A stretch of 64,000 nucleotides of DNA, taken from contig DASVBU010000021.1 in assembly GCA_036375695.1 (NCBI GenBank), forward strand, positions 27,329-91,328, in the 5' to 3' direction. The notes below the pieces were generated by a model. That model was not told the origin of the DNA, did no database searches, and was given only the letters and a program-made list of their open reading frames with translations. Made by a program: the position numbers and the translations under genes. Shown piece by piece: positions 2,811-63,887 of the stretch; positions within the stretch are counted from its first letter, which is position 1, and every line of letters begins with the position of its first letter. This DNA comes from Acidimicrobiia bacterium. Lineage in GTDB: Bacteria > Actinomycetota > Acidimicrobiia > Spongiisociales > ZC4RG35.

Positions 2811-3913
2811 AGCACCTTCTCCATTCGCTCCAGGATGGCCAGCAGCGTCGCCTCGTCGGTGGCGAAGTTGAATCTGGCGTGGCCCTCGCCACCCGGCCCG
2901 AATGGGAGACCGCCGCTCAGGGCCACCCGCGCCTCGTCCAACAGCACCGCGGCCGGGTCGTCCCACCCGTAGTCGGTGAAGTCGAGCCAGGCCAGGAACG
3001 TGGCCTCGGGCAGATGCATCCGCACCCTGGGAAGACGCTCGTCGATGAAGGAGGCGAGGAGGTCGCGGTTGTGCCGGAGACGCATCAGGACCTCGTCGAG
3101 CCATCCCTCCCCCTCCGCATATGCGGCGGCGCCTGCGATCAGCCCGAAGGTGCCCACCCCGATCTTCTCCGGGGTGAAGTAGTCGCGCCAGAATTCGAGG
3201 TCGCGGTCGTTGGTGAGGACGACCTGGGCGCACTTGAGCCCGGGAAGGTTGAACGCCTTCGACGCCGAGGTGATGGTGATGACCACATCGGGGGCGAGGG
3301 GCGCGGCCATCGTGTGGCTCCGCCCGTCGTAGAGGATGGCGGCATGGATCTCGTCGGCGATGACCCGGGCCCCATGCCGGGCCGCCACCGACACGACGTC
3401 CGAGACCTCGTCGACGCTGAGTGCCCGGGCCACCGGGTTCCACGGATTGCAAAGGACGACCGACCCGGCACCTTCGGCGAACGCACGATCCAGCCCGTCG
3501 ATGTCGATGCGGAAGCCGGCCTCCTCTTCGATGGAGGGCACCTCGATCACTTCGCGCCCGGCGCGCTCCACCATGGAGTAGAACGGGAAGTAGACAGGTG
3601 GGTGGAGGATCACCGGGCTCCCCGGCTCGGTGAGATGCATGATCGCCCGCCGACCTGCCTCGATGACGTCAGGGGCCGGGAACACGCCGGCCGGATCGAT
3701 GTCCGCGCCGAACCGCCGCTTCCAGAATCCCGTCGCCGCGACCGCGGCTGCCTCCTCGAGCCCGGGGTACGGGTATCCGGTGTCGCCGAGGTCGACGGCC
3801 TCGTGAAGCGCTTTGCTCACCGGCGGCGCCAACCCGAAGTCCATCTCCGCCACCCAGGCGCAGAGAACGTCCGGCTCGTAGTAGTTCCATTTCAGGCAGG
3901 GGCGGCTGGTCAT
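2807..3913 (-). CDS. MalY/PatB-type PLP-dependent aminotransferase / cystathionine beta-lyase (class I/II)
   Basis: 368 aa; WNYYEPD...AEMDF N-terminus and overall aminotransferase I/II organisation typical of PatB/MalY C-S lyases; convergent with dppC, stops overlap. Confidence 0.75.
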   Translation of the reverse strand: MTSRPCLKWNYYEPDVLCAWVAEMDFGLAPPVSKALHEAVDLGDTGYPYPGLEEAAAVAATGFWKRRFGADIDPAGVFPAPDVIEAGRRAIMHLTEPGSPVILHPPVYFPFYSMVERAGREVIEVPSIEEEAGFRIDIDGLDRAFAEGAGSVVLCNPWNPVARALSVDEVSDVVSVAARHGARVIADEIHAAILYDGRSHTMAAPLAPDVVITITSASKAFNLPGLKCAQVVLTNDRDLEFWRDYFTPEKIGVGTFGLIAGAAAYAEGEGWLDEVLMRLRHNRDLLASFIDERLPRVRMHLPEATFLAWLDFTDYGWDDPAAVLLDEARVALSGGLPFGPGGEGHARFNFATDEATLLAILERMEKVL

Positions 3914-5725: not shown

Positions 5726-6169
5726 GTGACCGTCGCCAGCCACCATCGCCAGGTCGAGAGCCGTCTCGCCGAGTCCCAGGTCCGCTATACGAAGGGGCGG
5801 CGGGCGGTGGTCGATCTCCTCGCCTCCGCCGAGGGGCCCCTGGGCGCGGCCGAGATCCACGAGCGGCTCGAGGGTCAGGTCCCGCTCTCGTCGGTGTATC
5901 GCACCCTCTCGGTCCTCGAGGAGGCCGGCGTGCTCATCCCCCACTTCGCCCAGAAGGGCCTCACCCGGTACGAGCTCGCCGAATGGCTTCGGGGGCACCA
6001 CCATCATCTCGTGTGCGTCGTCTGTGGCGGCGTCGAAGACTTCACCCTGCCCGAGAGGTTGGAGGCGGAGATGGACCGCATCGTGCGCGACATCGGCTCC
6101 CTCGCCCGCTTCCGGGCGGTCAACCACTCGCTGGAGATCGAGGGGAGGTGCACCCGGTGCGACGCCTGA
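5726..6169 (+). CDS. zur: Fur-family transcriptional regulator, zinc uptake regulator (Zur)-like
   Basis: 147 aa; winged-helix N-terminus; His-rich HHHH then CxxC...CxxC metal-site motifs; divergent from znuA and followed by znuC; GTG start. Confidence 0.75.
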   Translation: MTVASHHRQVESRLAESQVRYTKGRRAVVDLLASAEGPLGAAEIHERLEGQVPLSSVYRTLSVLEEAGVLIPHFAQKGLTRYELAEWLRGHHHHLVCVVCGGVEDFTLPERLEAEMDRIVRDIGSLARFRAVNHSLEIEGRCTRCDA

Positions 6170-6924
6170 ACGGTGTCGCGGTCCGGGCCCGCGACCTGGT
6201 CCTCGGCTACGGCTCGTTCGTCGCAATCCGCCAGGCCACGTTCGCCATCCCTTTCGGGACCCTCACCGCGGTGATCGGCCCCAACGGCTCGGGGAAGTCC
6301 ACGCTGCTCAACTCGATCGCCGGGCTGGTCACACCGATGGCGGGATCCATCGAGGTGGCGGTGCCGCCGAAGCGGATCGCCTACGTGATGCAGTCGACAA
6401 AGGTTCCGGAGGCACTCCCGGTGTCGGTGCGCGAGGTGGTGACCATGGGTCGCTATGCCACCAGCGGGCCGGCGCGGCGTCTCACCGCGGAGGATCGCCG
6501 GGCCGTCTCCGATGCCATGGAGCGTCTCGGGATCACGGACCTGGCCCACCGACAGATCAGCAAGCTCTCCGGCGGCCAGCGTCAGCGGGCCTTCGTCGCC
6601 CAGGGTCTGGCACAGGACCACGACATCCTGTTGTTGGACGAGCCCCTGACGGGGATCGACATCACCACGGCCGGCGCCATCGACGAGGTGATCCACCACG
6701 AGATCGAGGAGGGCTGTGCGGTGGTGATGACAACCCACGATCTCACCGAGGCGGCCGTGGCGGGGCACGTCATCCTCGTCTCCGGAGGAGTGGTGGCATC
6801 TGGCCCACCTGCGGACGTGCTAACGGCGGAGAACTTGCGTCGTGCCTACGGTCCCGCGCTCCTCCATGCCGGCGAGGATCGGGTCTTCCTCGACGACCCG
6901 GCGCACTTCCCCGTGCAGGAGTAG
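6157..6924 (+). CDS. znuC: metal ABC transporter ATP-binding protein, ZnuC-like
   Basis: GTG start at 6157 in the same frame as the 867-aa track ORF, whose upstream part is artefact. Walker A GPNGSGKST, LSGGQRQR signature, Walker B LLLDEP; overlaps zur stop by 13 nt. Confidence 0.8.
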   Translation: MRRLNGVAVRARDLVLGYGSFVAIRQATFAIPFGTLTAVIGPNGSGKSTLLNSIAGLVTPMAGSIEVAVPPKRIAYVMQSTKVPEALPVSVREVVTMGRYATSGPARRLTAEDRRAVSDAMERLGITDLAHRQISKLSGGQRQRAFVAQGLAQDHDILLLDEPLTGIDITTAGAIDEVIHHEIEEGCAVVMTTHDLTEAAVAGHVILVSGGVVASGPPADVLTAENLRRAYGPALLHAGEDRVFLDDPAHFPVQE

Positions 6925-6935
6925 GGGACTTGCCG

Positions 6936-7037
6936 CCCCCTAACCCCCCGGCTCCGGCACCGGACGGGTTCCCCCTACCCCCGGCTCCGCTCCGCTTCGC
7001 CGGCGGTACCTTCCCCCAGCCTGGCTGGGGGACTAAT
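6936..7037. repeat. GC-rich hairpin repeat element, copy 1, with two CCCCCTA(A)CCCCCGGCTCCG sub-repeats
   Basis: Core CGGCGGTACCTTCCCCC-(loop)-GGGGGACTAATC; recurs at about 10004, 10090, 41848, 43041, 63888 and 63954; lies between convergent znuC and the ECF ATPase gene. Confidence 0.7.
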
Positions 7038-7770
7038 CATGGGCCAGGGTGAAGCCGTACGGCAGCTCCAGCCGATGCTCCGCCAGGAGATCCGGCCTGG
7101 AGAGCAGTTCCGGGGTCGGCATGTCGACCACGACCCGGCCCCCGTCCATCACCACGGAACGAGGGCAAAGCTCCAGGGCGAGCGGGAGGTCGTGGGTGAT
7201 CACCACCATGGTGACGTCGAGAACGGACAGCGTCTCGATGAGGGTGCGTCGGCCGGCCGGGTCGAGACCGGAGCCCGGTTCGTCGAGGACCAGGATCTCC
7301 GGGCCCATGGCAAGCACCGTCGCCAGGGCGGCGAGACGCTTCTCACCACCGCTGAGATGATGCGGAGGCCGACTCGCCAGATCGGAGGCACCCACCCGGT
7401 GCAGGGCCTCTTCGACCACCGCGTCCAGGTCCCGGCCACGGACACCGAGATTGGCCGGGCCGAATGCGACGTCGTCGGCGACGGTGGGCATGAAGAGCTG
7501 GTCGTTGGGATCCTGGAAGACGAGACCGACCCGACGGCGGATCTCCGTCACGGTGTCGTCGGTGAGTGACACACCCCCGACGAGGACCTCTCCAGAGGCG
7601 CCACGGAGGAGGCCGTTGAGATGGAGGGCGAGCGTGGTCTTGCCGGCGCCATTGGGACCGAGGAGCGCGACCCTCTCGCCCTCGGCGACCGTCAGATCGA
7701 CACCCCGCAGCGCCTCCCGCCCATCCGGGTAGGAGAACCGGAGACCGCGGACTTCCAACACAGGGATCAC
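7033..7770 (-). CDS. cbiO: ECF transporter ATPase (CbiO/NikO, EcfA-like)
   Basis: Walker [18 protein letters not shown] signature, Walker B ILVLDEP; start chosen at GTG at 7768-7770 (VIPVLEVRGLRFSY) giving a GTGA overlap with cbiQ; stop codon lies inside the repeat element. Confidence 0.8.
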   Translation of the reverse strand: MIPVLEVRGLRFSYPDGREALRGVDLTVAEGERVALLGPNGAGKTTLALHLNGLLRGASGEVLVGGVSLTDDTVTEIRRRVGLVFQDPNDQLFMPTVADDVAFGPANLGVRGRDLDAVVEEALHRVGASDLASRPPHHLSGGEKRLAALATVLAMGPEILVLDEPGSGLDPAGRRTLIETLSVLDVTMVVITHDLPLALELCPRSVVMDGGRVVVDMPTPELLSRPDLLAEHRLELPYGFTLAHD

Positions 7771-8531
7771 GAGCCCACCAACGCCATCACCGCCACAACC
7801 ACGGCCACCGTGGGTGCGACCAGGGCGACGAGCCACTGGGTCCTCGTGGCCCGTCGCCGCTCCAGCACCGGCATCTCACCGGTGTAGCCACGGGCCATCA
7901 TCGCCGAGTGGACCCGCTCCCCCCGCTCGTACGCCCTGACGAACAGCGCCCCGGACGCGGACGCGATCGGCCGGGCCTGCCACAGCCATCTCGCGTCGTG
8001 ACCACGAGCAACCATCGCCTGGCGCATCCTCGACATCTCGTCTGCGATCAGCTCCAGGTAACGGACCATGAATCCGGCGATGGACACCAGCACCGACGGA
8101 GCCTTCAGCGTGCGCAACCCTTCGAGGATTCTCGACACCTCGGTGGTGGCCACCAAGACGATCGCCGCCCCCGCACCCAGGGTGGTCTTGGCGATGATCC
8201 CCCACGCCGCCCACAGCCCGTCGCGGCTGACCGTCACCCAGCCCACGTCGACTCGCTCCCCAGACCCGACCAACGGGACCATCAAGGCGAGCAGGATGAA
8301 CGGGAGGGCGCCGGTCAACCGGAGTATGAAGAAGCGAAGCGGGATCCGGCCGACCACCAGAGCGACCGCCAGGATCACTGCGTAGACGGCGAACGCCCAG
8401 ACCTGGCGTGGCGGTGTCACCGCCACCGACAGGGCGAACAGGAGCACCGCCGCCACCTTGGTCTCGGGCGGGGCGTGATGGAGGGCACTGTGCTCGTGGA
8501 CGTAGAGGGCGTGGGCGTGGCCGGCGCCCAC
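7767..8531 (-). CDS. cbiQ: ECF transporter transmembrane T component (CbiQ/NikQ)
   Basis: 254 aa polytopic membrane protein between the CbiM and CbiO homologues. Confidence 0.8.
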   Translation of the reverse strand: MGAGHAHALYVHEHSALHHAPPETKVAAVLLFALSVAVTPPRQVWAFAVYAVILAVALVVGRIPLRFFILRLTGALPFILLALMVPLVGSGERVDVGWVTVSRDGLWAAWGIIAKTTLGAGAAIVLVATTEVSRILEGLRTLKAPSVLVSIAGFMVRYLELIADEMSRMRQAMVARGHDARWLWQARPIASASGALFVRAYERGERVHSAMMARGYTGEMPVLERRRATRTQWLVALVAPTVAVVVAVMALVGS

Positions 8532-8534
8532 GTC

Positions 8535-9509
8535 TCAGCCTGTCGCTCGGGGCGAGCGCTCCCGGAACGCCCGGAAGATCCCCCAGGCGACCAGCAGGGT
8601 GATGAGCGTCCCGGCCACGCCGGCGATGGCCAGGCTCATCCTCTCGTCCTCGATGCCCCTGGTGGCGTAGTCGGCGAAGAGGAAGTCCGACCAGGCGTGG
8701 TCCCGACCCTGGTCGGCGAAGCCCTCGGTCTGGGCCACCCGCTCCAGACCGTCGGGGGCATCGGCGGCGAACTGGCTCACCACGGTGGCGAAGACCACCG
8801 TCACCAACAAGCCACCCAGGACGAAGACGCGAGTCGGGACCTTGCCACGTCCACTGCGCAGATCGACGCCCGCGGCACCGTGGACCAGGTCGGGCCGGGA
8901 GGCGAGCACCGCTCCCACGGCGATGGAGCTGATCACCGCCTCACCGATCCCGATCAGGGCGTGGATGCCGACCATGGCGCCGAAGACGCGGGTGAACGGG
9001 ATCGGCGCCGTCGCCCCGAAGAGCCACTCGATGGAGAAGGCCGCCGCCGACAGCACGACGGAGGCCCATGAGGCGAGAGCGGTCGCCCCGAGGATGCCGC
9101 CTCGACCCGCCGGCAGGAGCTTCTTGAAGATGCCGAAGAGGGCATACCCGGCGTAGGCGGGGACGATCGCCATGTTGAGGATGTTGTAGCCGAGGGCGGT
9201 GAGCCCACCGTCGGCGAAGAACATCGCCTGCACGGCCACGACGACCGTGACGACGAGGGCGCCCAGATGCGGCCCGAGGAGGATGGCTGCCAGCGCGCCC
9301 CCCATGAGATGGCCGGTGGTGCCTGCGGCCACGGGGAAGTTGAACATCTGGGCGGCGAACACGAATGCGGCGGTGATCCCAGCCACCGGGACCACCTTCT
9401 CGCTCATGGTCTGCCTGAGCTGACGGAGGGCAGCGCCGACGGTGCCGACGCTGACGACGCCGGTGGCCACGGCGGTCCCTGCATTGAGAAACCCGTCAGG
9501 TGCGTGCAA
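8535..9509 (-). CDS. cbiMN: ECF substrate-capture component, CbiM/NikM fused to CbiN/NikN-like C-terminal domain
   Basis: Start re-set to TTG at 9507-9509, giving fMet-His-Ala-Pro-Asp-Gly-Phe-Leu (the conserved M1-H2 metal-binding N-terminus of CbiM/NikM) with GGAGGA 5 nt upstream. The upstream 180 codons of the track ORF are artefact. The C-terminal ~100 aa with 2 TM resemble CbiN. Confidence 0.75.
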   Translation of the reverse strand: MHAPDGFLNAGTAVATGVVSVGTVGAALRQLRQTMSEKVVPVAGITAAFVFAAQMFNFPVAAGTTGHLMGGALAAILLGPHLGALVVTVVVAVQAMFFADGGLTALGYNILNMAIVPAYAGYALFGIFKKLLPAGRGGILGATALASWASVVLSAAAFSIEWLFGATAPIPFTRVFGAMVGIHALIGIGEAVISSIAVGAVLASRPDLVHGAAGVDLRSGRGKVPTRVFVLGGLLVTVVFATVVSQFAADAPDGLERVAQTEGFADQGRDHAWSDFLFADYATRGIEDERMSLAIAGVAGTLITLLVAWGIFRAFRERSPRATG

Positions 9510-9536
9510 TTCGTCCTCCTGATGCCAGGCCATCGC

Positions 9537-9557
9537 AATTGCGAACTGCTTGCAGCA
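9537..9557. promoter_or_regulatory. Candidate Nur (nickel-responsive Fur) box TTGCGA-ACTGC-TTGCAG in the cbiMN / fur-paralog divergent intergenic region
   Basis: Matches the tTGCaa-N5-tTGCAA architecture reported for Streptomyces Nur operators. Lies ~25-45 nt upstream of the cbiMN TTG start and ~20-40 nt upstream of the Fur-paralog GTG start; coordinates +/-2. Confidence 0.45.
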
Positions 9558-9578
9558 AAAGGAGTATAGGTTTGCGCC

Positions 9579-10001
9579 GTGATCATCGACGATCCCTTGC
9601 GGAGCGCCCTGGAACGGGAGGGTCACCGGATGACCGCGCCGCGTCGCGCCGTGTGGCAGGTCGTCTCCACCGCGGAGCGCCATCTCACCGCAGACGAGAT
9701 CGCGGCCCGGGTTCGCTCCGAGTACCCGGACGTCAACCTGTCCTCGATCTATCGGTCGCTGACCCTCTTCGCCGATCTGGGCCTGGTCAGGGAGTCCAGC
9801 CTCGACAGCGGCGGGCCGGCGCATTGGGAGCCGGCGCACCCCGACGACGACTTCCACCTCCGCTGCCGGCGGTGCGGGAGGATCGACCACCACACCGGTG
9901 ACCTCGTCGACCGGGTGCGCAGCCACCTCGAGGGCGAGCACGGCTGGATCCCCGAGCAGGTGGAGCTGCTTGTGACCGGTCTCTGCCCGGACTGCGCCTG
10001 A
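9579..10001 (+). CDS. Fur-family transcriptional regulator, second paralog, Nur-like candidate
   Basis: 140 aa; HTH N-terminus; H..H..CRRC..........CPDC metal-site motifs; divergent from cbiMNQO. Nickel versus cobalt specificity not determinable from sequence. Confidence 0.7.
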   Translation: MIIDDPLRSALEREGHRMTAPRRAVWQVVSTAERHLTADEIAARVRSEYPDVNLSSIYRSLTLFADLGLVRESSLDSGGPAHWEPAHPDDDFHLRCRRCGRIDHHTGDLVDRVRSHLEGEHGWIPEQVELLVTGLCPDCA

Positions 10002-10003
10002 GC

Positions 10004-10138
10004 CCCCTACCCCCGGCCTCCGGCCGGCGGTACCTTCCCCCATGCTTCGCATGGGGGACTGATCCTTTCACCGGCCCCCGGGAACCATGGGCCGCCGTAC
10101 CTTCCCCCATGCTTCACATGGGGGACGCTGCAGCCCCG
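10004..10138. repeat. GC-rich hairpin repeat element, copies 2 (full) and 3 (core only), in tandem
   Basis: CCCCCTACCCCCGGCCTCCGGCCGGCGGTACCTTCCCCCATGCTTCGCATGGGGGACTGATCC then GCCGCCGTACCTTCCCCCATGCTTCACATGGGGGACGCTG; 9-bp perfect stem CCCCCATGC/GCATGGGGG; between convergent fur paralog and the acyl-CoA dehydrogenase. Confidence 0.7.
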
Positions 10139-19614: not shown

Positions 19615-19709
19615 CGCCGGGTCGCTCCTGGTACCTTCTCCCCCGTTGCGATGACCGACAGCGAAGACCCTTCAGGTAGACGCATCGTCACCTCTAGGAC
19701 CCGAGGCCT

Positions 19710-28216: not shown

Positions 28217-28324
28217 GGCCATTTCGGCTTTTTGCTCCCTCCCAAACGCCCCATGGTTACACTCCCCCGAATCGGTGGCGGGTTCGCTCGCGCACCGAGC
28301 AATCAAATGGAGGAAAAGGAAGAC

Positions 28325-29710
28325 ATGAGTCGCAATTTCAGATCGCGACACCTGCTGATCCTGACGGTGGTCCTCGCCTTCATCGTTGCCGCATGTGGCA
28401 ATGGTGGCGAGGGGACGACGACCACCACCGGAGGTGGGGACACGACCACCACCGAAGGTGGGATGACGACCACCACGGAAGGCGGCGGGGGTCCCGAAGA
28501 CGACCCGCTCGGTGTCTGGGAGATCGCCCCTGGCGAGGCCATCCAGATCCGGGCGCTCCAGTCCCAGACCGGTGACGCCGGGCCCCTGGGCATCGACCAG
28601 ATCCGGGGCGTCCAGCTCGCCATCGCCGACTTCGGTCCGGTGGCCGGCGAGTGGGAAGTCGACCTCGGCACACCCGAGGACGACCTGTGCAACGCCGAAG
28701 GCGGCCAGGCCGGCGCCCAGGCCATCGTGGCCCAGGAGAACGTGATCGCCGTGATCGGCACCACCTGCTCCGGAGCCGCGTACGCCGCGGCCCCGGTCAT
28801 CACGGGTGCCAACATGGTGATGTTCTCGGGCTCGAACACGGCTCCGAACCTGACCTCTGACCTGCAGGGCAATGCGGGCGAGCAGCACTTCGAGGGCTAC
28901 TACCGCACGGCCCACAACGACCTGTTCCAGGGCGCCGCGGTGGCCAGCTTCGTGTTCAACGACCTGGGTCTGACCCGTGCGGTCGCCATCCATGACGGCG
29001 ACCCCTACACGGAGGGTCTCGTCGACGCCTTCATCGCGGCGTTCGAGACTCTCGGCGGCGAAGTCCCGCTGAAGACGGCCACGACCGGCCAGCAGGGCCA
29101 GGATCAGACGGCGCTCCTCTCCGAGGTCGCCGCTGCCGAGCCCGAGGTCGTGTTCTTCCCGATCTTCCCGCAGACGGGTGGCCCGGAGATCATCCAGCAG
29201 AAGGACGGCGTCGCCGGCCTCGAGGACGTGATCTGGATCGGTGCTGACGGCCTGTTCGTCAACAGCTTCATCACCATCCCGCAGTCCGTGGGCATGTACT
29301 TCTCCGGTCCGGACCTCGACTTCGGTGGCAACACCAGCGCCACTGGTAAGACCTACCAGGAGATGGTGGATGCCTATGTCGCCGAGTTCGGTGAGGAGCC
29401 CACTGCTCCGTTCCACGCCCACACCTACGACGCCACCGTGCTGGTGCTCACCGCCATCCAGGAGGTGGGTGTCGTCGGTGACGACGGCGTGCTGCGGATC
29501 GGCAAGCAGGCCCTGCGCGACTACCTGAACAACGTCTCGGACTTCGACGGTCTGATCGGCAAGATCACCTGCGACGAGTTCGGTGACTGCGGTAGCCAGC
29601 GGGTCCAGGTCGCCCACCACGACGACGCCGCCGTGGACAACATCGCCGACGTGGAGGTCGTCGCTCAGTACGCACGTGCTGACCTGATCGATCTCATCAC
29701 CGGCGGCTGA
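28325..29710 (+). CDS. ABC transporter substrate-binding lipoprotein, Leu/Ile/Val-binding (Peripla_BP_6) family, system 1
   Basis: Start re-set to ATG at 28325 (MSRNFRSRHLLILTVVLAFIVAACG lipobox, AGGAAAAGGAAG SD). Thr/Gly-rich tandem linker TTTTTGGGDTTTTEGGMTTTTEGGGG. LivK-like fold. Confidence 0.8.
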   Translation: MSRNFRSRHLLILTVVLAFIVAACGNGGEGTTTTTGGGDTTTTEGGMTTTTEGGGGPEDDPLGVWEIAPGEAIQIRALQSQTGDAGPLGIDQIRGVQLAIADFGPVAGEWEVDLGTPEDDLCNAEGGQAGAQAIVAQENVIAVIGTTCSGAAYAAAPVITGANMVMFSGSNTAPNLTSDLQGNAGEQHFEGYYRTAHNDLFQGAAVASFVFNDLGLTRAVAIHDGDPYTEGLVDAFIAAFETLGGEVPLKTATTGQQGQDQTALLSEVAAAEPEVVFFPIFPQTGGPEIIQQKDGVAGLEDVIWIGADGLFVNSFITIPQSVGMYFSGPDLDFGGNTSATGKTYQEMVDAYVAEFGEEPTAPFHAHTYDATVLVLTAIQEVGVVGDDGVLRIGKQALRDYLNNVSDFDGLIGKITCDEFGDCGSQRVQVAHHDDAAVDNIADVEVVAQYARADLIDLITGG

Positions 29711-29732
29711 TCCCGACGGATCCAACGATCTG

Positions 29733-29766
29733 AAAGGGGCCCGGCTCGAGCCGGGCCCCTTTCTCA
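29733..29766 (+). terminator. intrinsic terminator-like perfect hairpin after the SBP gene
   Basis: AAAGGGGCCCGGCTCGAGCCGGGCCCCTTTCT: 12-bp GC stem flanked by an A-tract and a T-tract. Confidence 0.6.
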
Positions 29767-29874
29767 CGCCCCGAAACCGGTTCACCCGTTGGGCGAATCC
29801 CTCGATCCGATACGACATGGGCGAAGTCAGTCCGCTATCGTGCCGCAACCTCCAAGGCGCGGACTGGAGTTCAC

Positions 29875-31164
29875 TTGGCTACCGAGAGCATCAGAGTGGA
29901 ACAAAGACGTGTGTCGGCGGACACACCGACCGTCGCCGTCGACGTCTTCATCAACGCCCTCAAGGTGTTCCTCGGCTTCTTCGCCCTCTGGGCCCTCGTG
30001 GGCGCCATCAGCCTCCAGATAGAGGGAAGACTCATCTCGGGCGCCGCCTGGCGGGACGTCCTCACCGGTGGGTTCGTCCAGGGCGCCATGTACGGCCTGG
30101 TCGCCCTGGGATACTCGATGGTCTACGGCATCCTCGGGTTCATCAACTTCGCGCATGGCGAGGTCTTCATGACCGGGATGTTCGGCGCCATGTTCGTGGC
30201 CCACGGGTTGGCCGACAACGGGATGCTGGAGTCGAACTTCTTCCTGGCCATGCTCATCATGATCGTCGCCGCCATGATCGTCTCGTCGGTGGTGGCGGTG
30301 GTGATCGAGAGAGTGGCCTATCGCCCGCTGCGGGGCGCTCCCCGCCTCATCCCCCTGATCACCTCGATCGGCGTCTCGTTCTTCCTCCAGTACGCCGTCA
30401 GCGGTCTCTTCGGCGCGGGTGTGAAGCGCTTCCCCGAGCTCCCTGCAGCCATGCAGCAGCGCTACAACATCCTCGGGCTCCTGGTCAACGGGAGCCAGAT
30501 CCTCGTCGTCGTGGTCACCGCCATCTCGGTGGTCGGCCTCTGGTGGTTCGTCACCCGCTCCAAGACCGGGCGCGCCATCAGGGCGGTAGCCGAGGACAAG
30601 GAGATCGCAGGGCTCATGGGCATCGACGTCGACCGGACCGTGGTCATGACCTTCCTCGTCGGCGGCGCGATGGCGGGTGTGGCTGCGGCGATGTGGGCAT
30701 TCCTCTACAAGAACGTCTTCTTCTTGTCCGGCTTCCTCCCCGGGATCAAGGCGTTCACCGCCGCAGTCCTGGGCGGCATCGGCAACCTGCCAGGCGCCCT
30801 GCTCGGAGGCATGACACTCGGTCTCGTCGAAGCCGCCGGGCCCACCTTCATGACCGCCTGGCGCTGGGCGATCCCCGACGTCGTCGCCTATGTGCTCGGG
30901 GTGATCTCGCTGGCGCTCGCCGTCTTCGGCGCCTACCGGCTCCGTCGGCGAGTCATCGTGCAGACCAGCACCAACATCTCCCTGATCGTCCTCGGTGTCC
31001 TGTTCGCGGTATTGGCCTTCACGGTCATCCCCGGGTTCCAGGTCGTGATCCCCGGCGCATCCCAGCTCAAGGACATGATCGCCTTCATAGTGCTGATCGG
31101 CGTCCTCATGATCCGCCCGATCGGGCTCCTGGGCGAGAGGCTCGCCGTGGAGGAGAGGGGCTGA
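29875..31164 (+). CDS. branched-chain amino-acid-type ABC permease, LivH-like, system 1
   Basis: LVALGYSMVYGILGFINFAHGEVFM matches the LivH N-terminal motif; start uncertain (N-terminal extension in track ORF). Confidence 0.7.
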   Translation: MATESIRVEQRRVSADTPTVAVDVFINALKVFLGFFALWALVGAISLQIEGRLISGAAWRDVLTGGFVQGAMYGLVALGYSMVYGILGFINFAHGEVFMTGMFGAMFVAHGLADNGMLESNFFLAMLIMIVAAMIVSSVVAVVIERVAYRPLRGAPRLIPLITSIGVSFFLQYAVSGLFGAGVKRFPELPAAMQQRYNILGLLVNGSQILVVVVTAISVVGLWWFVTRSKTGRAIRAVAEDKEIAGLMGIDVDRTVVMTFLVGGAMAGVAAAMWAFLYKNVFFLSGFLPGIKAFTAAVLGGIGNLPGALLGGMTLGLVEAAGPTFMTAWRWAIPDVVAYVLGVISLALAVFGAYRLRRRVIVQTSTNISLIVLGVLFAVLAFTVIPGFQVVIPGASQLKDMIAFIVLIGVLMIRPIGLLGERLAVEERG

Positions 31165-31165
31165 G

Positions 31166-33123
<1,958 letters not shown>

Positions 33124-33124
<1 letters not shown>

Positions 33125-33912
33125 TGGCGGAGCACATGATGGAGACCCGAGCGCTGGCGAAGCGGTTCGGCGGTCTCAACGCGCTCGCCGGTGTCGACTT
33201 CCACATCGACCGCGGGGAGATCGTGAGCATCATCGGGCCCAATGGCGCCGGGAAGACGACCTTCTTCAATGCCGTCAGCGGCATGTACCCGCCGGACTCC
33301 GGTGACGCCCTGTTCAAGGGCCAGAGCATCGCCGGGCTGAGCCCCGACCAGATCACCAAGATCGGCATCGCCCGGACGTTCCAGAACGTGCGGCTCTTCC
33401 CCAACATGACGGTGCTGGAGAACGTGATGGTCGCCCGTCACTGCCGCACCCACAAGAGCGTCCTGCCCACCATCTTCCGGAGCCCGGGGTTCCTCGCCGA
33501 GGAGAAGGAGATCGAGGACCGGGCCAAGGAGATCCTGTCGTTCTTCGGCAAGAGGCTCCACGGCTACCGCTGGGAGCAGCCCGCCTATGTGCTCTCCTAC
33601 GCCAACCGCCGTCGTCTCGAGATCGCCCGGGCCATGGCGACCGACCCCGAGCTGCTCCTGCTCGACGAGCCGACCGCAGGCATGAACCCCCGGGAGAGCA
33701 TGGAGCTGCGCGAGCTGATCGGCCGGCTCCGGGACGAGTGGGGCTTCACCATCATCATCATCGAGCACGACATGCGGGTGGTCCGTGACGTCTCCGACCG
33801 GGTGGTGGTGCTCGACCACGGAGAGAAGCTCACGGAGGGCACGTACGATCAGGTCTCGACCAACCCGCAGGTGATCGAGGCCTACCTGGGCCGACAGGCG
33901 GATCAGGGCTGA
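33124..33912 (+). CDS. ABC ATP-binding protein LivG-like, system 1
   Basis: Start at ATG at 33124 overlapping the LivM stop (TGATG); Walker [10 protein letters not shown]; LivG-type C-terminal extension. Confidence 0.85.
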
Positions 33913-34643
33913 TGACCGAAGATCGCACCCCCCTCCTCGAATTCAAGGACGTGAACACCTACTACGGGCTGGTTCACATCCTCAAGGACGTCAACCTCAA
34001 GATCTACCCGGGCGAGATCGTCTGTCTCCTCGGCGGCAACGCCTCGGGGAAGAGCACCACGCTGAAGACGATCCTGGGCATGGTCATCCCCGCCTCGGGA
34101 ACCGTGTACATCGACGGCATGGACGTGACCAAATGGTCGACCAGCCAGCGTGTCGAGCACGGGATCTCGATGGTCCCGGAGAACCGTCGCCTGTTCAAGC
34201 GGATGACGGTGAGGGAGAACCTCGAGATCGGCGCCTACCTGCGCAAGGACAGGGAGAACCTTCAGGCCGAGATGGAGCGGATCTTCGAGCTGTTCCCCAG
34301 GGTCAAGGAGCGGCTCAACCAGAAGGCCGGGACCCTCTCCGGTGGCGAGCAGCAGATGGTGGCCGTGGGCCGTGCCCTCATGTCCAACCCCAAGCTCCTC
34401 CTCATGGACGAGCCGTCGATGGGTCTGGCCCCGATCCTGGTCGCCCAGAGCTTCGAGATCATCCAGCAGATCCACGAGGCCGGGACCTCGGTGTTCGTGG
34501 TGGAGCAGAACGCCAACATGGCGCTCTCCATCGCCGACCGGGGCTATGTGCTCCAGACCGGCCAGATCGTGCTCTCCGACACGGCCCAGGCGCTTCTGGA
34601 GAACCCGCAGATGCGCCAGGCCTACCTCGGCGAAGTCTCCTAG
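33912..34643 (+). CDS. ABC ATP-binding protein LivF-like, system 1
   Basis: Walker A GGNASGKST, LSGGEQQMVAVGRAL signature; ATGA overlap with LivG. Confidence 0.85.
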   Translation: MTEDRTPLLEFKDVNTYYGLVHILKDVNLKIYPGEIVCLLGGNASGKSTTLKTILGMVIPASGTVYIDGMDVTKWSTSQRVEHGISMVPENRRLFKRMTVRENLEIGAYLRKDRENLQAEMERIFELFPRVKERLNQKAGTLSGGEQQMVAVGRALMSNPKLLLMDEPSMGLAPILVAQSFEIIQQIHEAGTSVFVVEQNANMALSIADRGYVLQTGQIVLSDTAQALLENPQMRQAYLGEVS

Positions 34644-34756
34644 ACCAGCCCTCCGGGCGCCGAGAAGTACCTGTCCGATTACCCCTTCGACTATCGGGCA
34701 CGCGTAAGGTCACGCCGCTACCCTCGCCACGCCCCGGCAGGGGCGCTGGAGGAGGA

Positions 34757-35526
<770 letters not shown>

Positions 35527-35539
<13 letters not shown>

Positions 35540-36378
35540 GGGCACGACTTCTCGGCGAAGTCCTCCCCCGGGCGGAGGGACACGACGTCGTCCTCTCGGT
35601 CGAGGGCCTCCACCTCTCCTTCCACGCGGTGAAGGCCATCGAAGGTGTCGGCTTCACCGTCCACGACGGGGAGATCTTCGCCATCATCGGGCCCAACGGC
35701 GCCGGGAAGACCTCGGTGTTCAACTGCATCTCCGGCTTCTATCGCCCCGACTCGGGCACGATCGGCTTCGATGGTCGTGACCTCGTCGGCCTCAAGCCAC
35801 ACAGGATCGCCAACCTCGGCGTCGCCCGGACGTTCCAGAACATCGAGCTCTTCCCCCAGATGACCGTGCTCGACAACCTCATGCTGGGCCGGCACCGCCA
35901 CCTTCGCTACGGGTCGCTCGCCGCCATGCTCCGGGTGGGCAAGGCGATTCGGCAGGAGGTGCACAACCGAGAGGTCGTCGAAGCCATCGTCGAATTCCTC
36001 GAACTGGAGCCATATCGCAAGTCCTACGTGGCGATGCTCCCGTATGGTGTGCAGAAGAGGGTCGAGCTGGGCCGGGCCCTCGCCACGGAGCCTCGCATCC
36101 TGCTCCTCGACGAGCCGGCCGCCGGCATGAACCTCGAGGAGACCGAAGACATGGCGCGCTACATCACCGACATCCGGCGGGAGTTGGGGATTGGCGTGAT
36201 CCTCGTCGACCACGACATGCGTCTGGTGATGGACCTCGCCGACACGGTCCTCGCCCTCGAGTTCGGCCGGCACATCGCCACCGGCTCACCCGATGCCATC
36301 CAATCCAACCCAGACGTGATCCGCGCCTATCTGGGCGAGGGTCAGCAGTCCGCGACGATCCCGGGAGGTTCCGCATGA
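35527..36378 (+). CDS. ABC ATP-binding protein LivG-like, system 2
   Basis: Walker [10 protein letters not shown]; LivG-type; GTG start overlapping the previous stop. Confidence 0.85.
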
Positions 36379-38225
36379 CCACCACACTCGAGCCGAGAAC
36401 CCGTCTGCGCACACCGGCGGCGCGACTGGTCGAGCACGCCGAGCTCACGCCGAACAAGGTGGCCCTCAGGGAGAAGTACCACGGCGTCTGGAGAGAGATC
36501 ACCTGGGGTGAGTACTGGGACAACGTGGAGACGTTCGCCCACGCCCTCATGGCGTACGGGATCGAGAAGGGCGACCGGGTGGCCATCCAATCCGAGAACC
36601 GGCCCGAGTGGCTGTACACCGACCTGGGATCGATGTCCGCCGGCGCCATCTGCGTCGGTCTCTATCCCACCAACCCGACCGCCGAGATCGAGTACCTCCT
36701 CTCCAACTCCGGCTCCAAGGTCCACGTGGTCGAGGATCAGGAGCAGGCAGACAAGGTCCTGGCCATCCCGCCGGACAGGCTCCCGGAGCTGAAGCACATC
36801 ATCTACATCGAGCACCGGGGAGTGGACAACATCGACGACCCGCGGCTCATCTCCTGGGACGAATTCATGGCTGCCGGCCGGGAGCACCGTGAAGCCCATC
36901 CCGACGCGGTGGCCCGGAGCCTCGACGAGGCGGAGCCCGACGACGTCGTCTACCTCATCTACACATCCGGCACCACCGGGCCACCCAAGGGCGCCATGCT
37001 CACCATGGGCAACCTGGTCTACGCCACGGAGTTGATCACCGGCCATCGCGCGCTGATCCGCCCTCCGGCCGGCCCCAAGGACCTCCTCGTCTCCTATCTG
37101 CCGTTGTGCCACATCTACGAGAAGGTGTTCTCGGTGCTGATCGGCATCGGCGGCGGCGCCACGGTGCATTTCGGCGAGTCGCTGGACACGCTGATCACCG
37201 ACCTTCGCGAGGTCCAGCCCACGATCATGCAGGGCGTCCCGCGGATCTGGGAGCGGATCCACGCATCCTCGATGGTGCGGATGGCATCCGCCTCCCCGCT
37301 GAAGAGGCTCAACGCCGGGATCTGGCTGGCAGCCGCCCGCCACATCGGGGCCACCAAGGTGAAGCGGAACGGCCACCACACCGTGTCGACCAAGATCCTC
37401 GCCGCCCTCGGCGAGGTCTTCTTGTTCCGGGCGCTAAAGGACCGCGCGGGCCTGCGGCGTGTCCGCACGGCCATCTCCGGCGCCGCGCCGATCGCCCCCG
37501 AGATCCTCGAGTTCTACATGGGCATCGGGGTCCCGCTGTTCGAGGCCTACGGGATGACCGAGAACACCGCCATCGCCACTGCCAACCCGCCGGACGACGT
37601 CAAGGTGGGGACGGTCGGGCCGCCCTATGAGGGGACCGAGCTCGAGATCGACCCCGAGACCGGGGAGATCCTGGTCCGGCATGGCGCGGTGTTCGCCGGC
37701 TACTGGAACATGCCCGAGGCCACGGCGCGGACGCTCGATGCCGACGGCTGGCTCCACACCGGCGACGTCGGCGAGTGGGTGGACGGGACCCACGTCAAGA
37801 TCGTCGACCGGATCAAGGACATCATCATCACCAGTGGGGGCAAGAACATCTCCCCCTCGGAGCTCGAGAACTCCTTGAAGGCGTCGCCGTACATCAAGGA
37901 GGCGATCGTCATCGGGGACCGGCGCAAGTACCTGACGGCCCTCATCGGGATCGACTACGAGGTCGTCTCCGAGTGGGCGCAGCGTCGCAACATCCCCCAC
38001 ACCACCTACCGCGACCTCTCCGAGAAGCCGGAGGTGGTCGCCCTGGTGGACAAGGCGGTCAAGGAGGTGAACGAGAAGTTCGCCCGGGTCGAGCAGATCA
38101 AGGCGTTCCGGCTCATCACCAAGGAGCTCGACCACGAGGACGGCGAGCTCACCGCCACCCAGAAGGTGAAGCGAACCATCATCGAGTCCCGATTCGCCGA
38201 CCTAATCGAGTCGATGTACGAATGA
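36375..38225 (+). CDS. long-chain fatty-acid-CoA ligase (AMP-dependent synthetase/ligase), embedded in ABC system 2
   Basis: 616 aa; AMP-binding motif YTSGTTGPPKGAML; FACL-type linker and C-terminal domain; overlaps flanking genes by 4 nt on each side. Confidence 0.85.
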   Translation: MTTTLEPRTRLRTPAARLVEHAELTPNKVALREKYHGVWREITWGEYWDNVETFAHALMAYGIEKGDRVAIQSENRPEWLYTDLGSMSAGAICVGLYPTNPTAEIEYLLSNSGSKVHVVEDQEQADKVLAIPPDRLPELKHIIYIEHRGVDNIDDPRLISWDEFMAAGREHREAHPDAVARSLDEAEPDDVVYLIYTSGTTGPPKGAMLTMGNLVYATELITGHRALIRPPAGPKDLLVSYLPLCHIYEKVFSVLIGIGGGATVHFGESLDTLITDLREVQPTIMQGVPRIWERIHASSMVRMASASPLKRLNAGIWLAAARHIGATKVKRNGHHTVSTKILAALGEVFLFRALKDRAGLRRVRTAISGAAPIAPEILEFYMGIGVPLFEAYGMTENTAIATANPPDDVKVGTVGPPYEGTELEIDPETGEILVRHGAVFAGYWNMPEATARTLDADGWLHTGDVGEWVDGTHVKIVDRIKDIIITSGGKNISPSELENSLKASPYIKEAIVIGDRRKYLTALIGIDYEVVSEWAQRRNIPHTTYRDLSEKPEVVALVDKAVKEVNEKFARVEQIKAFRLITKELDHEDGELTATQKVKRTIIESRFADLIESMYE

Positions 38226-39115
38226 CCCAGTTCATCCAGGTGGTCCTGAACGGGGTGGCCCAGGCCGCCGTCTACGCCCTGGTGGCGGTGGGCTTCGTCA
38301 TCATCTTCAAGTCCACCCAGGTGCTCAACTTCGCCCAGCCGGCCTTGCTCCTCTTCGGTGCGCTGTGGGTGACGTACTTCGCCACCTCGGTGGGTCTCCC
38401 GTTCTGGCTGTCCGTGATCATCGCGGTCGTCCTCTCGGCCGCCACCGGCATCGCCGTGGAGCGCACGGCTCTTCGGCCCATGGTCGGGAAGCCGATCTTC
38501 GCCGTGGCGATCATGACGATCGGGCTGAACACGGTGCTCACGGTGCTCGCCCTTGCCGGCCTCGGCATCGACCTCCGACCCATCGGCGACCCCTGGGGGA
38601 TCAAGACCGTCCGGCTCGGCGGCTTCGCCCTCGCCCAGCACCAGGTGGCGGCGATCATCACGGCCGTCGTCCTGGTCTCGGCGCTGCTCGTCTTCTTCAA
38701 GTACTCCCGGATGGGGCTTGCGATGCGGGCGGCGGCATTCGACCAGGAGGTGGCCCTCACCCAAGGCGTCTCGGTCGCCTCTGTGTTCGCCCTGTCCTGG
38801 GCGCTGTCGGCGGTGCTCGCCATGTTCGGCGGTGTCTTCGTCGGCGCCGGGGTGGGCATCGACCGGAGCGCCCAGGTGGTTGCCCTCAAGGCCCTGCCGG
38901 TGGTCATCGTGGGAGGCCTCGACTCGATCGGGGGCGCTCTCGTCGGCGCGATCATCATCGGGATCACCGAGGCGCTCGCCCAGAACTACCAGCCCACCCT
39001 GGCACCCGGGCTGGGTCGGAACTTCTCCCAGGTCGTGCCGTACCTGGTGATGTTCATCGTGCTGCTGATCCGGCCGACGGGTCTGTTCGGCACCGAGGAG
39101 GTGGAGAGGGTATGA
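38222..39115 (+). CDS. branched-chain amino-acid-type ABC permease, LivH-like, system 2
   Basis: Start at ATG at 38222 (ATGA overlap with ligase stop); MTQFIQVVLNGVAQAAVYALVAVGFVIIF is LivH-like. Confidence 0.8.
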   Translation: MTQFIQVVLNGVAQAAVYALVAVGFVIIFKSTQVLNFAQPALLLFGALWVTYFATSVGLPFWLSVIIAVVLSAATGIAVERTALRPMVGKPIFAVAIMTIGLNTVLTVLALAGLGIDLRPIGDPWGIKTVRLGGFALAQHQVAAIITAVVLVSALLVFFKYSRMGLAMRAAAFDQEVALTQGVSVASVFALSWALSAVLAMFGGVFVGAGVGIDRSAQVVALKALPVVIVGGLDSIGGALVGAIIIGITEALAQNYQPTLAPGLGRNFSQVVPYLVMFIVLLIRPTGLFGTEEVERV

Positions 39116-40311
39116 GGCTGGGTCGGCCGGGGCTCATCTCCGACTACGCCACGGACACGGCCATCTTCCGGAGCAACGTCGCCCGTTTCTGGTTCACCGT
39201 GCTCCTCGTCGTCGTCGTGGTACTCGGTCTCGGAGGGGCCATCCCGCTCGGGTTCATGACCCTGTCCCTCGACGGGGAGGCGATGTTCCTCCTCGTCACC
39301 GCCCTGTTCGCTTCGGTGGCCGCCATCGGGCTCAACATCGTCACCGGTATCGCCGGCCAGGTCTCCCTGGGCCACGCCTTCTTCCTCGGTCTGGGCGCAT
39401 TCACCGCCGCCCTGCTCGGGGGTGTCGGGGAGACCCGCCAGGTCTTCGACCTCGAGACCGGACAGTTCGTACAGCAGACCCTGCTCTTGGGCTTCGAACT
39501 CGACATGCTCATCTGGCTGCCCGCAGCCGGCATCGTCGCCGCGCTCGCCGGCCTGATCGTGGCCCCGGTCGCCTTCCGGCTCCGGGGCCTCTACCTGGCA
39601 GTGGTCACGCTCGGTCTGGTGTTCCTCGGCGAGCACCTGTTCCGGGAGTGGGACGTGCTCACGGGCGGAGTGGGCATCGGCCGGCCGACTCCCTCGCTAT
39701 CCCTTCTCGGCTTTCGATTCGACCAACCCGGCGAGGTGCTGGGCTTCATGCTCGACCGGCAAGAGAAGCTGTTCGTGCTCGGCCTCATCCTGCTCCTCAT
39801 CTTCGGCCTGGCAGCCAAGAACCTGACCCGCTCCAAGATCGGCCGCGCCCTCTCGGCGATCAGGGACAGGGACATCGCGGCTTCGATGATGGGGATCGAC
39901 CTCTCCAGGTACAAGACCGTCGCCTTCGTCATCTCGTCGTTCTACGCGGGGGTCGCCGGTGCCCTGCTCTACACGGTGATCGGGCGCCTCCAACCCGAGT
40001 CGTTCAACCTCCTGCTCTCCGTGGAGTACATCGCCATGATCCTCATCGGTGGCGTCGCCACGGTCTCGGGCGCGATCATGGGGGCGGCGTTCATCACCTT
40101 CCTGCCCCTCGTGGTCAGGTGGCTGGCCGGGTTCCCGGTCTTCGGGTTCATCTCCACCGCACCGGGGGGCAACTTCCCCACGGTCGCCCACATCGAGGAG
40201 ATCCTGTTTGGCGTCCTCATCGTGGTGTTCCTCATATTCGAGCCTCTCGGTCTGTACGGAATCTGGATACGCATTCGCAACTACTGGAAGGCTTGGCCGT
40301 TCAGTTATTGA
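39112..40311 (+). CDS. branched-chain amino-acid-type ABC permease, LivM-like, system 2
   Basis: Start at ATG at 39112 (ATGA overlap); NIVTGIAGQVSLGHAFFLGLGAFTAALL is LivM-like. Confidence 0.8.
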   Translation: MRLGRPGLISDYATDTAIFRSNVARFWFTVLLVVVVVLGLGGAIPLGFMTLSLDGEAMFLLVTALFASVAAIGLNIVTGIAGQVSLGHAFFLGLGAFTAALLGGVGETRQVFDLETGQFVQQTLLLGFELDMLIWLPAAGIVAALAGLIVAPVAFRLRGLYLAVVTLGLVFLGEHLFREWDVLTGGVGIGRPTPSLSLLGFRFDQPGEVLGFMLDRQEKLFVLGLILLLIFGLAAKNLTRSKIGRALSAIRDRDIAASMMGIDLSRYKTVAFVISSFYAGVAGALLYTVIGRLQPESFNLLLSVEYIAMILIGGVATVSGAIMGAAFITFLPLVVRWLAGFPVFGFISTAPGGNFPTVAHIEEILFGVLIVVFLIFEPLGLYGIWIRIRNYWKAWPFSY

Positions 40312-40381
40312 GCAGAGAGATAAAGTTGGCGGACGGTCGGATAGGACCGCGTCCGTCATGGACAACTAGGAGGAGAAGGAC

Positions 40382-41801: not shown

Positions 41802-41845
41802 AAAAAAGGACGAAGGGCCGGTCATGCCGGCCCTTCGTCCTTTCG
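41802..41845 (+). terminator. intrinsic terminator-like hairpin after SBP gene 2
   Basis: AAAAAGGACGAAGGGCCGG-tcatg-CCGGCCCTTCGTCCTTTCGC: 15-bp stem with an A-tract before it. Confidence 0.6.
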
Positions 41846-41847
41846 CA

Positions 41848-41920
41848 GGATCAGTCCCCCACGACCGGAGGGAGTGGGGGAAGGCACCGCCGGCTAGCAA
41901 AGCGGAGCCGGGGGTAGAGC
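41848..41920. repeat. GC-rich hairpin repeat element, copy 4 (inverted orientation)
   Basis: GATCAGTCCCCCACGACCGGAGGGAGTGGGGGAAGGCACCGCC...GGAGCCGGGGGTAGAG is the reverse complement of the copy 1/2 consensus. Confidence 0.65.
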
Positions 41921-41941
41921 CACCAGGCGAAGGGATCGGAG

Positions 41942-43040: not shown

Positions 43041-43104
43041 CACCCCCTATCCCCGCCCTTCGGGCAGCGGTACCTTCCCCGAGCCCCCGGCGGGGGCTAA
43101 TCCT
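43041..43104. repeat. GC-rich hairpin repeat element, copy 5
   Basis: CACCCCCTATCCCCGCCCTTCGGGCAGCGGTACCTTCCCCGAGCCCCCGGCGGGGGCTAATCC; the stop codon of the converging minus-strand gene lies inside GGGGGCTAATC. Confidence 0.65.
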
Positions 43105-63834: not shown

Positions 63835-63887
63835 CGACTCCGTCCCCCGAAACGGAAGCGAAGGAGGCAGGAGCCAGGACCAGTCCC

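Follow-up and report, generated by a model that had tools for sequence, protein, structure and literature searches.

The described systems closest to the repeat reported here are repetitive extragenic palindromes (REPs) and REPINs with their RAYT (TnpA-REP) transposases (the GTAG-tagged superfamily of Proteobacteria and others), the CGTC-tagged REPs, the Tuberculosis Rho-independent terminator (TRIT), the Rickettsia palindromic elements (RPE) and other small mobile repeats within genes, the ends of IS200/IS605 insertion sequences, and the DNA mini-hairpin d(GC-GNA-GC). The repeat itself is a double-hairpin element with seven copies in a 64-kb stretch of a metagenome-assembled Acidimicrobiia genome (Actinomycetota; contig DASVBU010000021.1, positions 27,329 to 91,328), called the window below. 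It shares with REP/REPIN-RAYT systems short, GC-rich imperfect palindromes (hairpins of about 20 to 35 nt each) with compensatory stem changes, high copy number, location outside genes, and a preference for convergent and co-directional intergenic regions near stop codons. Both also form head-to-head dimers, occasionally have a copy in frame inside a gene, and show no target-site duplication. In contrast to REPs, the element has no unpaired GT[AG]G (or CGTC) head, its conserved 5' tag being CCCC(C); its CTAC (GTAG on the other strand) is partly paired at the stem foot, on the opposite side from the REP head; and each unit joins two different hairpins in a fixed head-to-tail order. In the element, direct arrays (23) are more frequent than inverted pairs, whereas they are reported to be negligible for REPs, whose predominant dimer form is head-to-head. 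At least 35 species share one element core, in contrast to the usual species specificity of REPs, and no RAYT gene was found next to element copies. The main published survey lists tagged REPs for eight phyla, and Actinomycetota is none of them.

The CGTC-tagged REPs (alpha-proteobacteria, Neisseria dRS3, and Rickettsia RPE-4/6) have a four-base tag, an 8- to 9-bp stem whose first two pairs are A/T, and a 3-nt unpaired tail. Compared by description, hairpin 1 of the element resembles them in its CCCC tag, T-A/A-T foot, 9- to 10-bp stem, and CCT tail, and the predominance of head-to-head dimers, the intragenic units, and the lack of an associated dedicated transposase (none was found for the element in 1.28 Mb) add to the likeness. 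The element departs from them in its tag (CCCC(C) versus CGTC, TGTC, or CCTC), its foot (TA versus AT), its loops (mostly 3 nt, TNC, versus 4 to 5 nt), its conserved stem mismatch (C.C), and the second hairpin that always accompanies hairpin 1. TRIT, also compared by description, is an actinobacterial multicopy motif conserved in sequence and structure at gene termini; like the element, it is largely palindromic and hence bidirectional, lacks a U-tail, and often overlaps a stop codon. Unlike the element, it is a single hairpin, reported only in Mycobacterium, where 147 copies are known. Its terminator role is doubtful, since TRIT predictions overlap only 2 to 4% of the termination sites mapped by Term-seq.

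RPEs insert in frame into conserved protein genes without destroying them, as the element does in nuoG (locus L002), and under the same type of likeness falls its supply of the last codon and stop codon of genes (window positions 7033-7035 and 43097-43099). RPEs are longer, richer in AT, and frequently intragenic, whereas only 3 of 150 element copies extend into called genes by >15 nt. IS200/IS605 ends are hairpins with conserved irregularities and strand-specific structure, without inverted terminal repeats or target duplication, and in all this they match the element. They differ from it in that no Y1/HUH transposase gene was detected in 1.28 Mb searched with IS200 TnpA and RAYT queries, and no replication-strand bias was detectable with the majority gene strand as a proxy. 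The mini-hairpin is matched by the G-rich strand of the element, which usually caps both hairpins with C(GNA)G at frequencies that follow the order of stability. It is known as a physicochemical motif of phage and plasmid single-strand origins and N4 promoters rather than as a family of repeats, and we infer here that an interspersed chromosomal repeat makes use of it.

Anatomy, covariation, and spread of the double-hairpin unit

Anchored extraction from the window and from loci fetched from other genomes, together with model-based alignment, defined a unit of 55 to 75 nt that reads (A/C)CCCC-CTACCCCC-(variable tip)-GGCGGTAC-CTT-CCCCC-(variable tip)-GGGGGAC-T-R-W-Y. The foot of hairpin 1 is T-A/A-T, followed by C-G pairs among which a C.C mismatch is conserved and by an extension that is variable and covaries; a CCTT linker joins it to hairpin 2, which consists of a C5/G5 foot and another variable extension and is followed by an ACT-R-W tail. 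The tips of both hairpins contain A-T pairs, so the stems are not the pure G:C helices described in an earlier note on this DNA. Minimum-free-energy (MFE) folding with either RNA or DNA parameters gives both hairpins on both strands.

The two helices are strongly supported by covariation across 149 distinct copies. Standard pairs fill 93% of cells versus 82% after shuffling, 11 of the 16 pairs vary at both partners, and compensatory cells number 232, values matched by none of 500 shuffles. All of these measures collapse once the 3' partners are slid by 1 to 3 columns. Conservation ends at about -5 on the 5' side and at +4 to +6 on the 3' side, the conserved parts being the hairpin feet and linkers rather than the termini, and the 3' tail is lineage specific. 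Long hairpin 1 tips are runs of one to three units of the pentamer CTYCG (CGRAG on the other strand), as at window positions 6989-7003 and in many other loci, which suggests replication slippage of the mini-hairpin unit.

A covariance model of the unit (R1; 58 positions, 16 base pairs, built from 43 copies), run over the whole window with filters off, returned exactly seven matches at an E value of <1e-4, bearing out the seven repeats that the earlier note had listed. Five of these are full copies, one is clipped by the window end, and one is the second hairpin alone; the next-best match, at 12.6 bits, is noise. The 12-mer core GGTACCTTCCCC, allowing up to 1 mismatch, occurs 9 times in the window versus 0.23 expected, a number reached in 0 of 100 shuffles, and seven of the nine are the reported copies. 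The other two, at 19630 and 31875, have no hairpins and were set aside as chance matches. A possible extra 5' module, CCGGACGGGTT, was not significant in the window.

The element is not confined to the window. A pattern scan with one genome per species gave at least 108 loci among the matches listed, and R1 found 156 matches in 726 kb of selected loci, with carriers in at least 35 species-level assemblies, all metagenome-assembled genomes (MAGs), and further matches in other loci. Five loci (L001, L003, L016, L058, and L082) were rejected as chance or coding matches. The occurrence of the element in >100 loci of other genomes means that the similarity among the window copies is not the product of local duplication, one of the two outcomes that the earlier note had named as fatal to its claim. 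Nearly all carrier assemblies are labeled Acidimicrobiia, Acidimicrobiales, or Actinomycetes. The core GGCGGTACCTTCCCCC and the motif CCCCCTACCCCC are unchanged in at least 35 species-level assemblies, some of which share only 45 to 75% protein identity at syntenic genes. Bona fide copies also occur on contigs binned as Gammaproteobacteria, Planctomycetaceae, and Pseudomonadota (L022, L068, and L078, respectively). The first of these shares synteny, at 67% nucleotide identity over 3.3 kb, with contig L090 of Acidimicrobiia, and the oddly labeled contigs are thus likely misbinned.

The range of the element has limits. No copies were found near CbiM relatives (58 to 71% identity; 80 metagenome loci, 468 kb) or near RibD_C relatives (80 to 88% identity), where synteny is not conserved. 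In viral contigs, the composite pattern had 0 matches and a 16-mer core had 7, none of them upheld by the covariance model, so the element is not phage borne in that viral collection. Rfam, which in release 15 has no entry for TRIT, gave 0 matches over the window at the gathering threshold, and a permissive search gave as its best match an unrelated Burkholderia small RNA (19.7 bits against a threshold of 112; E value of 0.19). The full-text literature that was searched gave no description of the element either, in agreement with the earlier note, which had identified no matching described element. Several other classes were considered and dropped: G-quadruplexes or i-motifs (only three G5/C5 tracts per unit), integron attC sites (no GTTRRRY core), CRISPR repeats (irregular spacing), and tRNA-derived sequences (no tRNA). 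Overall, the repeat is a real and apparently undescribed family, a REP-like double-hairpin interspersed repeat of Acidimicrobiia.

Position relative to genes, loop polarity, and mobility

Genes were called with a codon-usage model and weighted interval scheduling, a procedure that recovers the Pfam-supported genes of the window. Outside called genes lie 147 of the 150 copies. Among 81 intergenic regions that carry the element and have both neighbors called, 30 are convergent, 42 co-directional, and 9 divergent, compared with 84, 441, and 108 of the other intergenic regions in the same loci (p = 3e-7) or, when only those of at least 50 nt are counted, 33, 174, and 87 (p = 4e-8). The convergent share is thus 37% with the element versus a baseline of 11 to 13%. 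Counted by side (n = 162), stop codons are faced in 102 cases and start codons in 60 (p = 0.001), with median distances of 28 to 43 nt to stop codons and 75 to 91 nt to start codons. Gene 3' ends are clearly preferred, not exclusive. The earlier note had placed the element only at 3' ends, and what stands of this is the enrichment: the divergent regions, the sides facing gene starts, and the intragenic copies all speak against exclusivity, as does, in the window, the copy at 41849-41923, which ends 18 nt before a start codon. Within co-directional regions, 26 copies have the same orientation as the gene and 29 the opposite one, showing no bias. Adjacent copies are arranged head-to-tail in 23 cases, often 0 to 6 nt apart, and head-to-head (5'-to-5') in 11 cases, with a spacing of 7 to 79 nt; at most 3 are tail-to-tail (3'-to-3'), two of which are overlap artifacts.

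Some copies lie within coding sequence. In locus L002, a copy at 6815-6871 lies in frame inside nuoG, between the Molybdopterin and Molydop_binding domains, and is translated as SPPTAASGDGTFPPAGGP; this 19-codon insertion corresponds in an alignment to 16 to 19 extra residues in a variable interdomain linker, absent from 11 homologs. A second copy in the same locus (3316-3373) forms part of the C-terminal tail of nuoE, and one in L012 (862-933) spans the last ~22 codons of a SpoU methylase gene.

The loops of the hairpins are strongly polar. On the C-rich strand, hairpin 1 has C(TNC)G triloops in 68 of 81 cases and C(GNA)G in none, and hairpin 2 has them in 52 and 6 of 80 cases, respectively, which sums to 120 C(TNC)G versus 6 C(GNA)G loops, with triloops the usual form. 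The TNC loops sit on 22 different stem contexts in hairpin 1 and 16 in hairpin 2, so that the loop pattern is not that of one inherited sequence. The G-rich strand accordingly reads C(GNA)G, at frequencies of GAA (55) > GGA (37) > GCA (22) > GTA (6). According to a review, C(GNA)G is an "extraordinarily stable" DNA mini-hairpin motif formed only by GNA triloops, whose stability decreases along N = A > G > C > T and whose RNA counterparts have much lower stability; the single-stranded-DNA-binding protein SSB binds such mini-hairpins poorly, and they mark priming sites. The order of loop frequencies in the element is the published order of mini-hairpin stability, and the G-rich strand folds better by ~3 kcal/mol with DNA parameters. 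Loop statistics and modeled folds together point to the G-rich strand, folded as single-stranded DNA, as the form under selection.

Do these copies move? Orthologous intergenic regions were found filled in one species and empty in the other (L083 versus L032, and L101 versus L071), and upstream of clpB, two related MAGs have the element in the same intergenic region but turned in opposite directions. The insertion in nuoG, judged from the alignment with its homologs, is a gain within a conserved gene. Dispersed copies in the window (41849-41923 and 63878-64000) have the same 15-nt hairpin 2 tip, and dispersed copies within a genome share tip sequences elsewhere, too. Between two genomes that are 84% identical over 4.4 kb, on the other hand, an inverted element pair (60 and 58 nt) lying between convergent genes is 100% identical, whereas the spacers around and between the two members have diverged, with indels. 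The site differences and the perfect pair together indicate that copies can move and that some resident copies are under constraint.

Two further observations concern these loci. The empty orthologue in L071 holds, at 1520-1590, a different hairpin with the same frame, CTAC-GGCAGCGG...CCGCTGC-GTACC, followed by GGTACC-like repeats, which may be a related or ancestral repeat type. Short-read assemblies of the window strain (L109 to L112; window positions 41855 and 43018) break exactly within the repeats, as does a related MAG (end of L076, start of L094), which is consistent with a high genomic copy number. A search for strain-level empty sites through contigs that encode an identical glyoxalase protein returned none, all of these contigs being 100% identical to the window and broken at repeats.

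What the element may be and what it may do

On balance, and with a confidence somewhat above even, we regard the family as a short non-coding repeat of the REP kind that spread as single-stranded DNA through a trans-acting enzyme and is kept mainly 3' of genes, with some copies under selection as barriers; the enzyme and the host role are the steps that we infer. Under this reading, the element would be a non-autonomous mobile DNA, recognized and copied as its folded, single-stranded G-rich strand by an enzyme that acts in trans in a manner analogous to that of REP/RAYT or IS200/IS605 ends. Insertions would survive mainly where they do the least harm, downstream of genes, and selection would then retain some copies, probably as hairpin or cruciform barriers that work in either orientation where transcription units end, for instance, by protecting mRNA 3' ends or by providing a supercoiling site or a protein-binding site. 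The copies would not serve as canonical U-tract intrinsic terminators.

Several results weigh against such a mobile, enzyme-driven repeat. Clustering of neighbor genes showed no protein family that recurs beside copies, and phmmer searches with IS200 TnpA and Escherichia coli RAYT queries found nothing in 1.28 Mb, a weak negative; the genes bracketed by inverted copies are housekeeping genes by Pfam (such as nuoF, clpB, and a homocysteine methyltransferase gene). CGTC-tagged REPs likewise lack a dedicated transposase. Single-strand transposons are usually biased toward one replication strand. The element is oriented without regard to gene direction (26 versus 29), its relation to the majority gene strand is not significant (32 versus 20; p = 0.13), and orientations are mixed within the window. 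Stem mismatches, after removal of a register artifact, comprise 33 G.T and 29 A.C and so favor neither strand, and the loop polarity could stem in part from shared ancestry. No empty site was found at nucleotide resolution, the filled/empty pairs and the loci with CbiM relatives being too diverged to give boundaries or a target. A single core across at least 35 species is unlike the typically species-specific REPs, and copies that stay identical at an orthologous site are explained no less well by a host function than by selfishness of the element.

Other explanations of the element are less likely. If the hairpins acted mainly in transcripts, as the earlier note had proposed, serving as bidirectional factor-independent terminators or as barriers to 3' exonucleases that stabilize upstream mRNA, conserved through a binding factor as proposed for TRIT, then the enrichment in convergent regions and near stop codons, the stable hairpins formed from both strands, the perfect conservation of two orthologous copies, and the overlap with stop codons, seen also in TRIT, would all follow; REPs, those of E. 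coli among them, are, moreover, described as stabilizing mRNA. The form of the hairpins argues otherwise, since GNA/TNC triloops favor DNA and selected RNA hairpins typically carry GNRA or UNCG. Position and orientation also fit RNA-level action poorly: the 9 divergent regions, copies just before start codons and inside open reading frames (ORFs), the lack of an orientation preference in co-directional regions, and a copy at 41849-41923 that already sits behind another strong hairpin. No T-run was found behind the hairpins on either strand, the 3' flank being T-R-W-Y followed by mixed sequence and the 5' flank lacking an A-run, and a terminator consensus scan flagged none of the copies. Mycobacterial RNA polymerase is reported in PMC3993855 to need a U-tract. 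Given this need, the missing U-tract, and the 2 to 4% overlap of TRIT with mapped termination sites, canonical intrinsic termination is unlikely, and the bidirectional terminators that the earlier note thought probable find no backing in the flanks, in the random orientation, or in the copy that follows a separate hairpin. The element may still act as a 3' barrier or pause site, yet action mainly at the RNA level seems to us rather improbable, perhaps a one-in-four matter.

A site that acts as DNA and no longer moves, bound or extruded at transcription-unit ends by a host protein (gyrase, for instance, or a nucleoid protein or a factor in replication or priming), would account for the independence of orientation from gene direction, the equal frequency of G.T and A.C mismatches, the unpaired motifs and the C.C/G.G mismatch kept across at least 35 species, and the perfect conservation at orthologous sites. 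E. coli REPs bind gyrase, IHF, and Pol I according to the literature, and mini-hairpins exclude SSB and mark priming sites according to the review cited above. We consider such full domestication unlikely, because presence/absence differences, the orientation flip, and the intragenic insertions bespeak recent movement, genome-specific tip and tail subfamilies suggest ongoing amplification, relatives lack the element altogether (0 matches near CbiM relatives, in 468 kb from 80 loci), and no binding protein was identified. A little less doubtful, though still improbable, is a reading in which the element is more than one further selfish REP, namely, a class-wide, host-selected single-stranded-DNA signal whose G-rich strand forms two GNA-capped mini-hairpins with a conserved G.G mismatch, read by a non-RAYT protein of Acidimicrobiia and perhaps propagated by the same protein. 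The earlier note also called the family REP/MITE-like. [quoted passage not shown] The ends of the element, (A/C)CCCCCTACC... and ...GGGGGACTRWY, are not inverted repeats, and no offset gave 2- to 4-mer matches clearly above expectation among 113 copies, so that there is no signal of target-site duplication and no support for a MITE. Conservation in the hairpin feet and linkers rather than the termini and the absence of a transposase near or between copies (searches in 1.28 Mb) speak the same way, and we give a classical MITE very little credence. Even less credible is a small-RNA gene or cis-regulatory RNA (riboswitch or ribozyme) in several copies: strong covariation in two helices would be expected of it, whereas the lack of an Rfam match, the occurrence in both orientations and every gene context beside unrelated genes, the common tandem and inverted arrays, and a unit of merely two simple hairpins would not.

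Copies in the window and the meaning of the family

The window copies occupy five loci. Three are convergent (ABC ATPase/cbiO, fur/acyl-CoA dehydrogenase, and ribD_C/alkZ-like), one is co-directional, and the fifth lies at the window end, with its second neighbor outside the window; of the four convergent loci in five counted by the earlier note, three can be demonstrated in the window. The first copy, given in that note as 6936-7037, comprises two parts: a full copy at 6969-7038 on the plus strand (58.9 bits; E value of 4e-18), whose MFE fold gives two hairpins on both strands, and directly before it, at 6936-6968 on the same strand, a degenerate 5' fragment (CCCCCTAACCCCCCGG...CCGGACGGGTT) that resembles the first half of hairpin 1 and is not scored by the covariance model as a separate copy. 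The hairpin 1 tip of the full copy is (CTCCG)(CTCCG)(CTTCG). Its neighbors are an ATP-binding cassette (ABC) ATPase gene (6148-6924, plus strand) and cbiO (7033-7770, minus strand), and the cbiO stop codon (7033-7035, CTA on the plus strand = TAG) lies inside the 3' end ACTAATC of the copy.

The best match to the family consensus is the full copy at 10001-10064 on the plus strand (65.7 bits; E value of 2e-20), with fold z scores of -4.7 (RNA) and -5.1 (DNA). It begins at the last base of the stop codon (TGA, 9999-10001) of fur (9579-10001), a gene with a Pfam FUR match. Behind it in tandem, a partial unit on the plus strand at 10093-10131 consists of hairpin 2 only (CCGTACCTTCCCCC-ATGCTTCACAT-GGGGGAC); the covariance match runs from 10073 to 10131 (20.5 bits) and is aligned with a deletion of hairpin 1, and an acyl-CoA dehydrogenase gene on the minus strand ends at 10166. 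The element borders at both ends, in the same orientation, the four-gene block of 7033-10001, which holds a cbiM(PDGLE)-cbiQ-cbiO cobalt/nickel uptake operon divergent from the gene for the Fur-family regulator.

The co-directional copy at 41849-41923 on the minus strand (41.4 bits) has its 5' end 18 nt from the ATG (41942) of a glyoxalase gene, and on its 3' side it directly adjoins another, separate hairpin (41803-41846), itself behind a binding-protein gene. This hairpin, AAAGGACGAAGGGCCGG-TCAT-GCCGGCCCTTCGTCCTTT, is very strong, has A-rich and T-rich flanks, and looks like the real terminator of the binding-protein gene, though a simple terminator scan does not flag it. A full, decaying copy at 43041-43102 on the plus strand (44.1 bits; four non-standard pairs) has several stem mismatches and folds no better than shuffled sequences (z = -0.3). 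The stop codon of an alkZ-like gene on the minus strand (43097-43099, CTA = TAG) lies inside its 3' end, and an independent gene call also puts the gene end at 43097; the cbiO and alkZ-like genes both end in GAT TAG, read from the CTAATC of the element. The last two copies, both on the minus strand, form a head-to-tail pair with 1-nt spacing: a full copy at 63878-63943 (58.6 bits), 43 nt past the stop codon (63832-63834) of an HTH-cupin gene identified by Pfam, and a copy at 63945-64000 whose 5' end is cut by the window end (32.6 bits, or 51.2 bits when scored as truncated).

The double-hairpin element is the only non-coding dispersed repeat of the window. The other repeat families are paralogous segments of ABC transporter genes and a short coding tandem repeat. 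Most repeats found in the window come from a large cluster of branched-chain-amino-acid-type ABC transporter genes (28253-41791), in which two binding proteins and several permeases are accompanied by two paralogous ATPase pairs (33124-36378) and an AMP-binding enzyme. The tandem repeat, three 24-nt copies (GGGACGACGACCACCACCGGAGGTGG) at 28412-28485, lies near the 5' end of a periplasmic binding-protein gene and probably encodes a linker rich in Thr and Gly that follows the signal peptide; the paralogous gene has a similar stretch at 40478-40503.

In practical terms, these repeats break metagenome assemblies, create spurious ORFs, and give stop codons or extra residues to real genes, and the element could be used as a marker of its lineage to expose misbinned contigs. 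For Acidimicrobiia, an abundant and almost entirely uncultured group whose phylum, Actinomycetota, is missing from the main published REP survey, the family adds a REP-like repeat of distinct architecture, with two different hairpins per unit, a conserved mismatch, and a core unusually constant across species. Its polar GNA/TNC loops are natural DNA mini-hairpins in a chromosomal repeat and provide an argument from sequence for function at the DNA rather than the RNA level. A cognate enzyme, if it exists, would be a new one, and if the element were instead a host-selected single-stranded-DNA signal, it would represent a new single-stranded-DNA-processing system tied to replication, priming, or transcription-unit boundaries.

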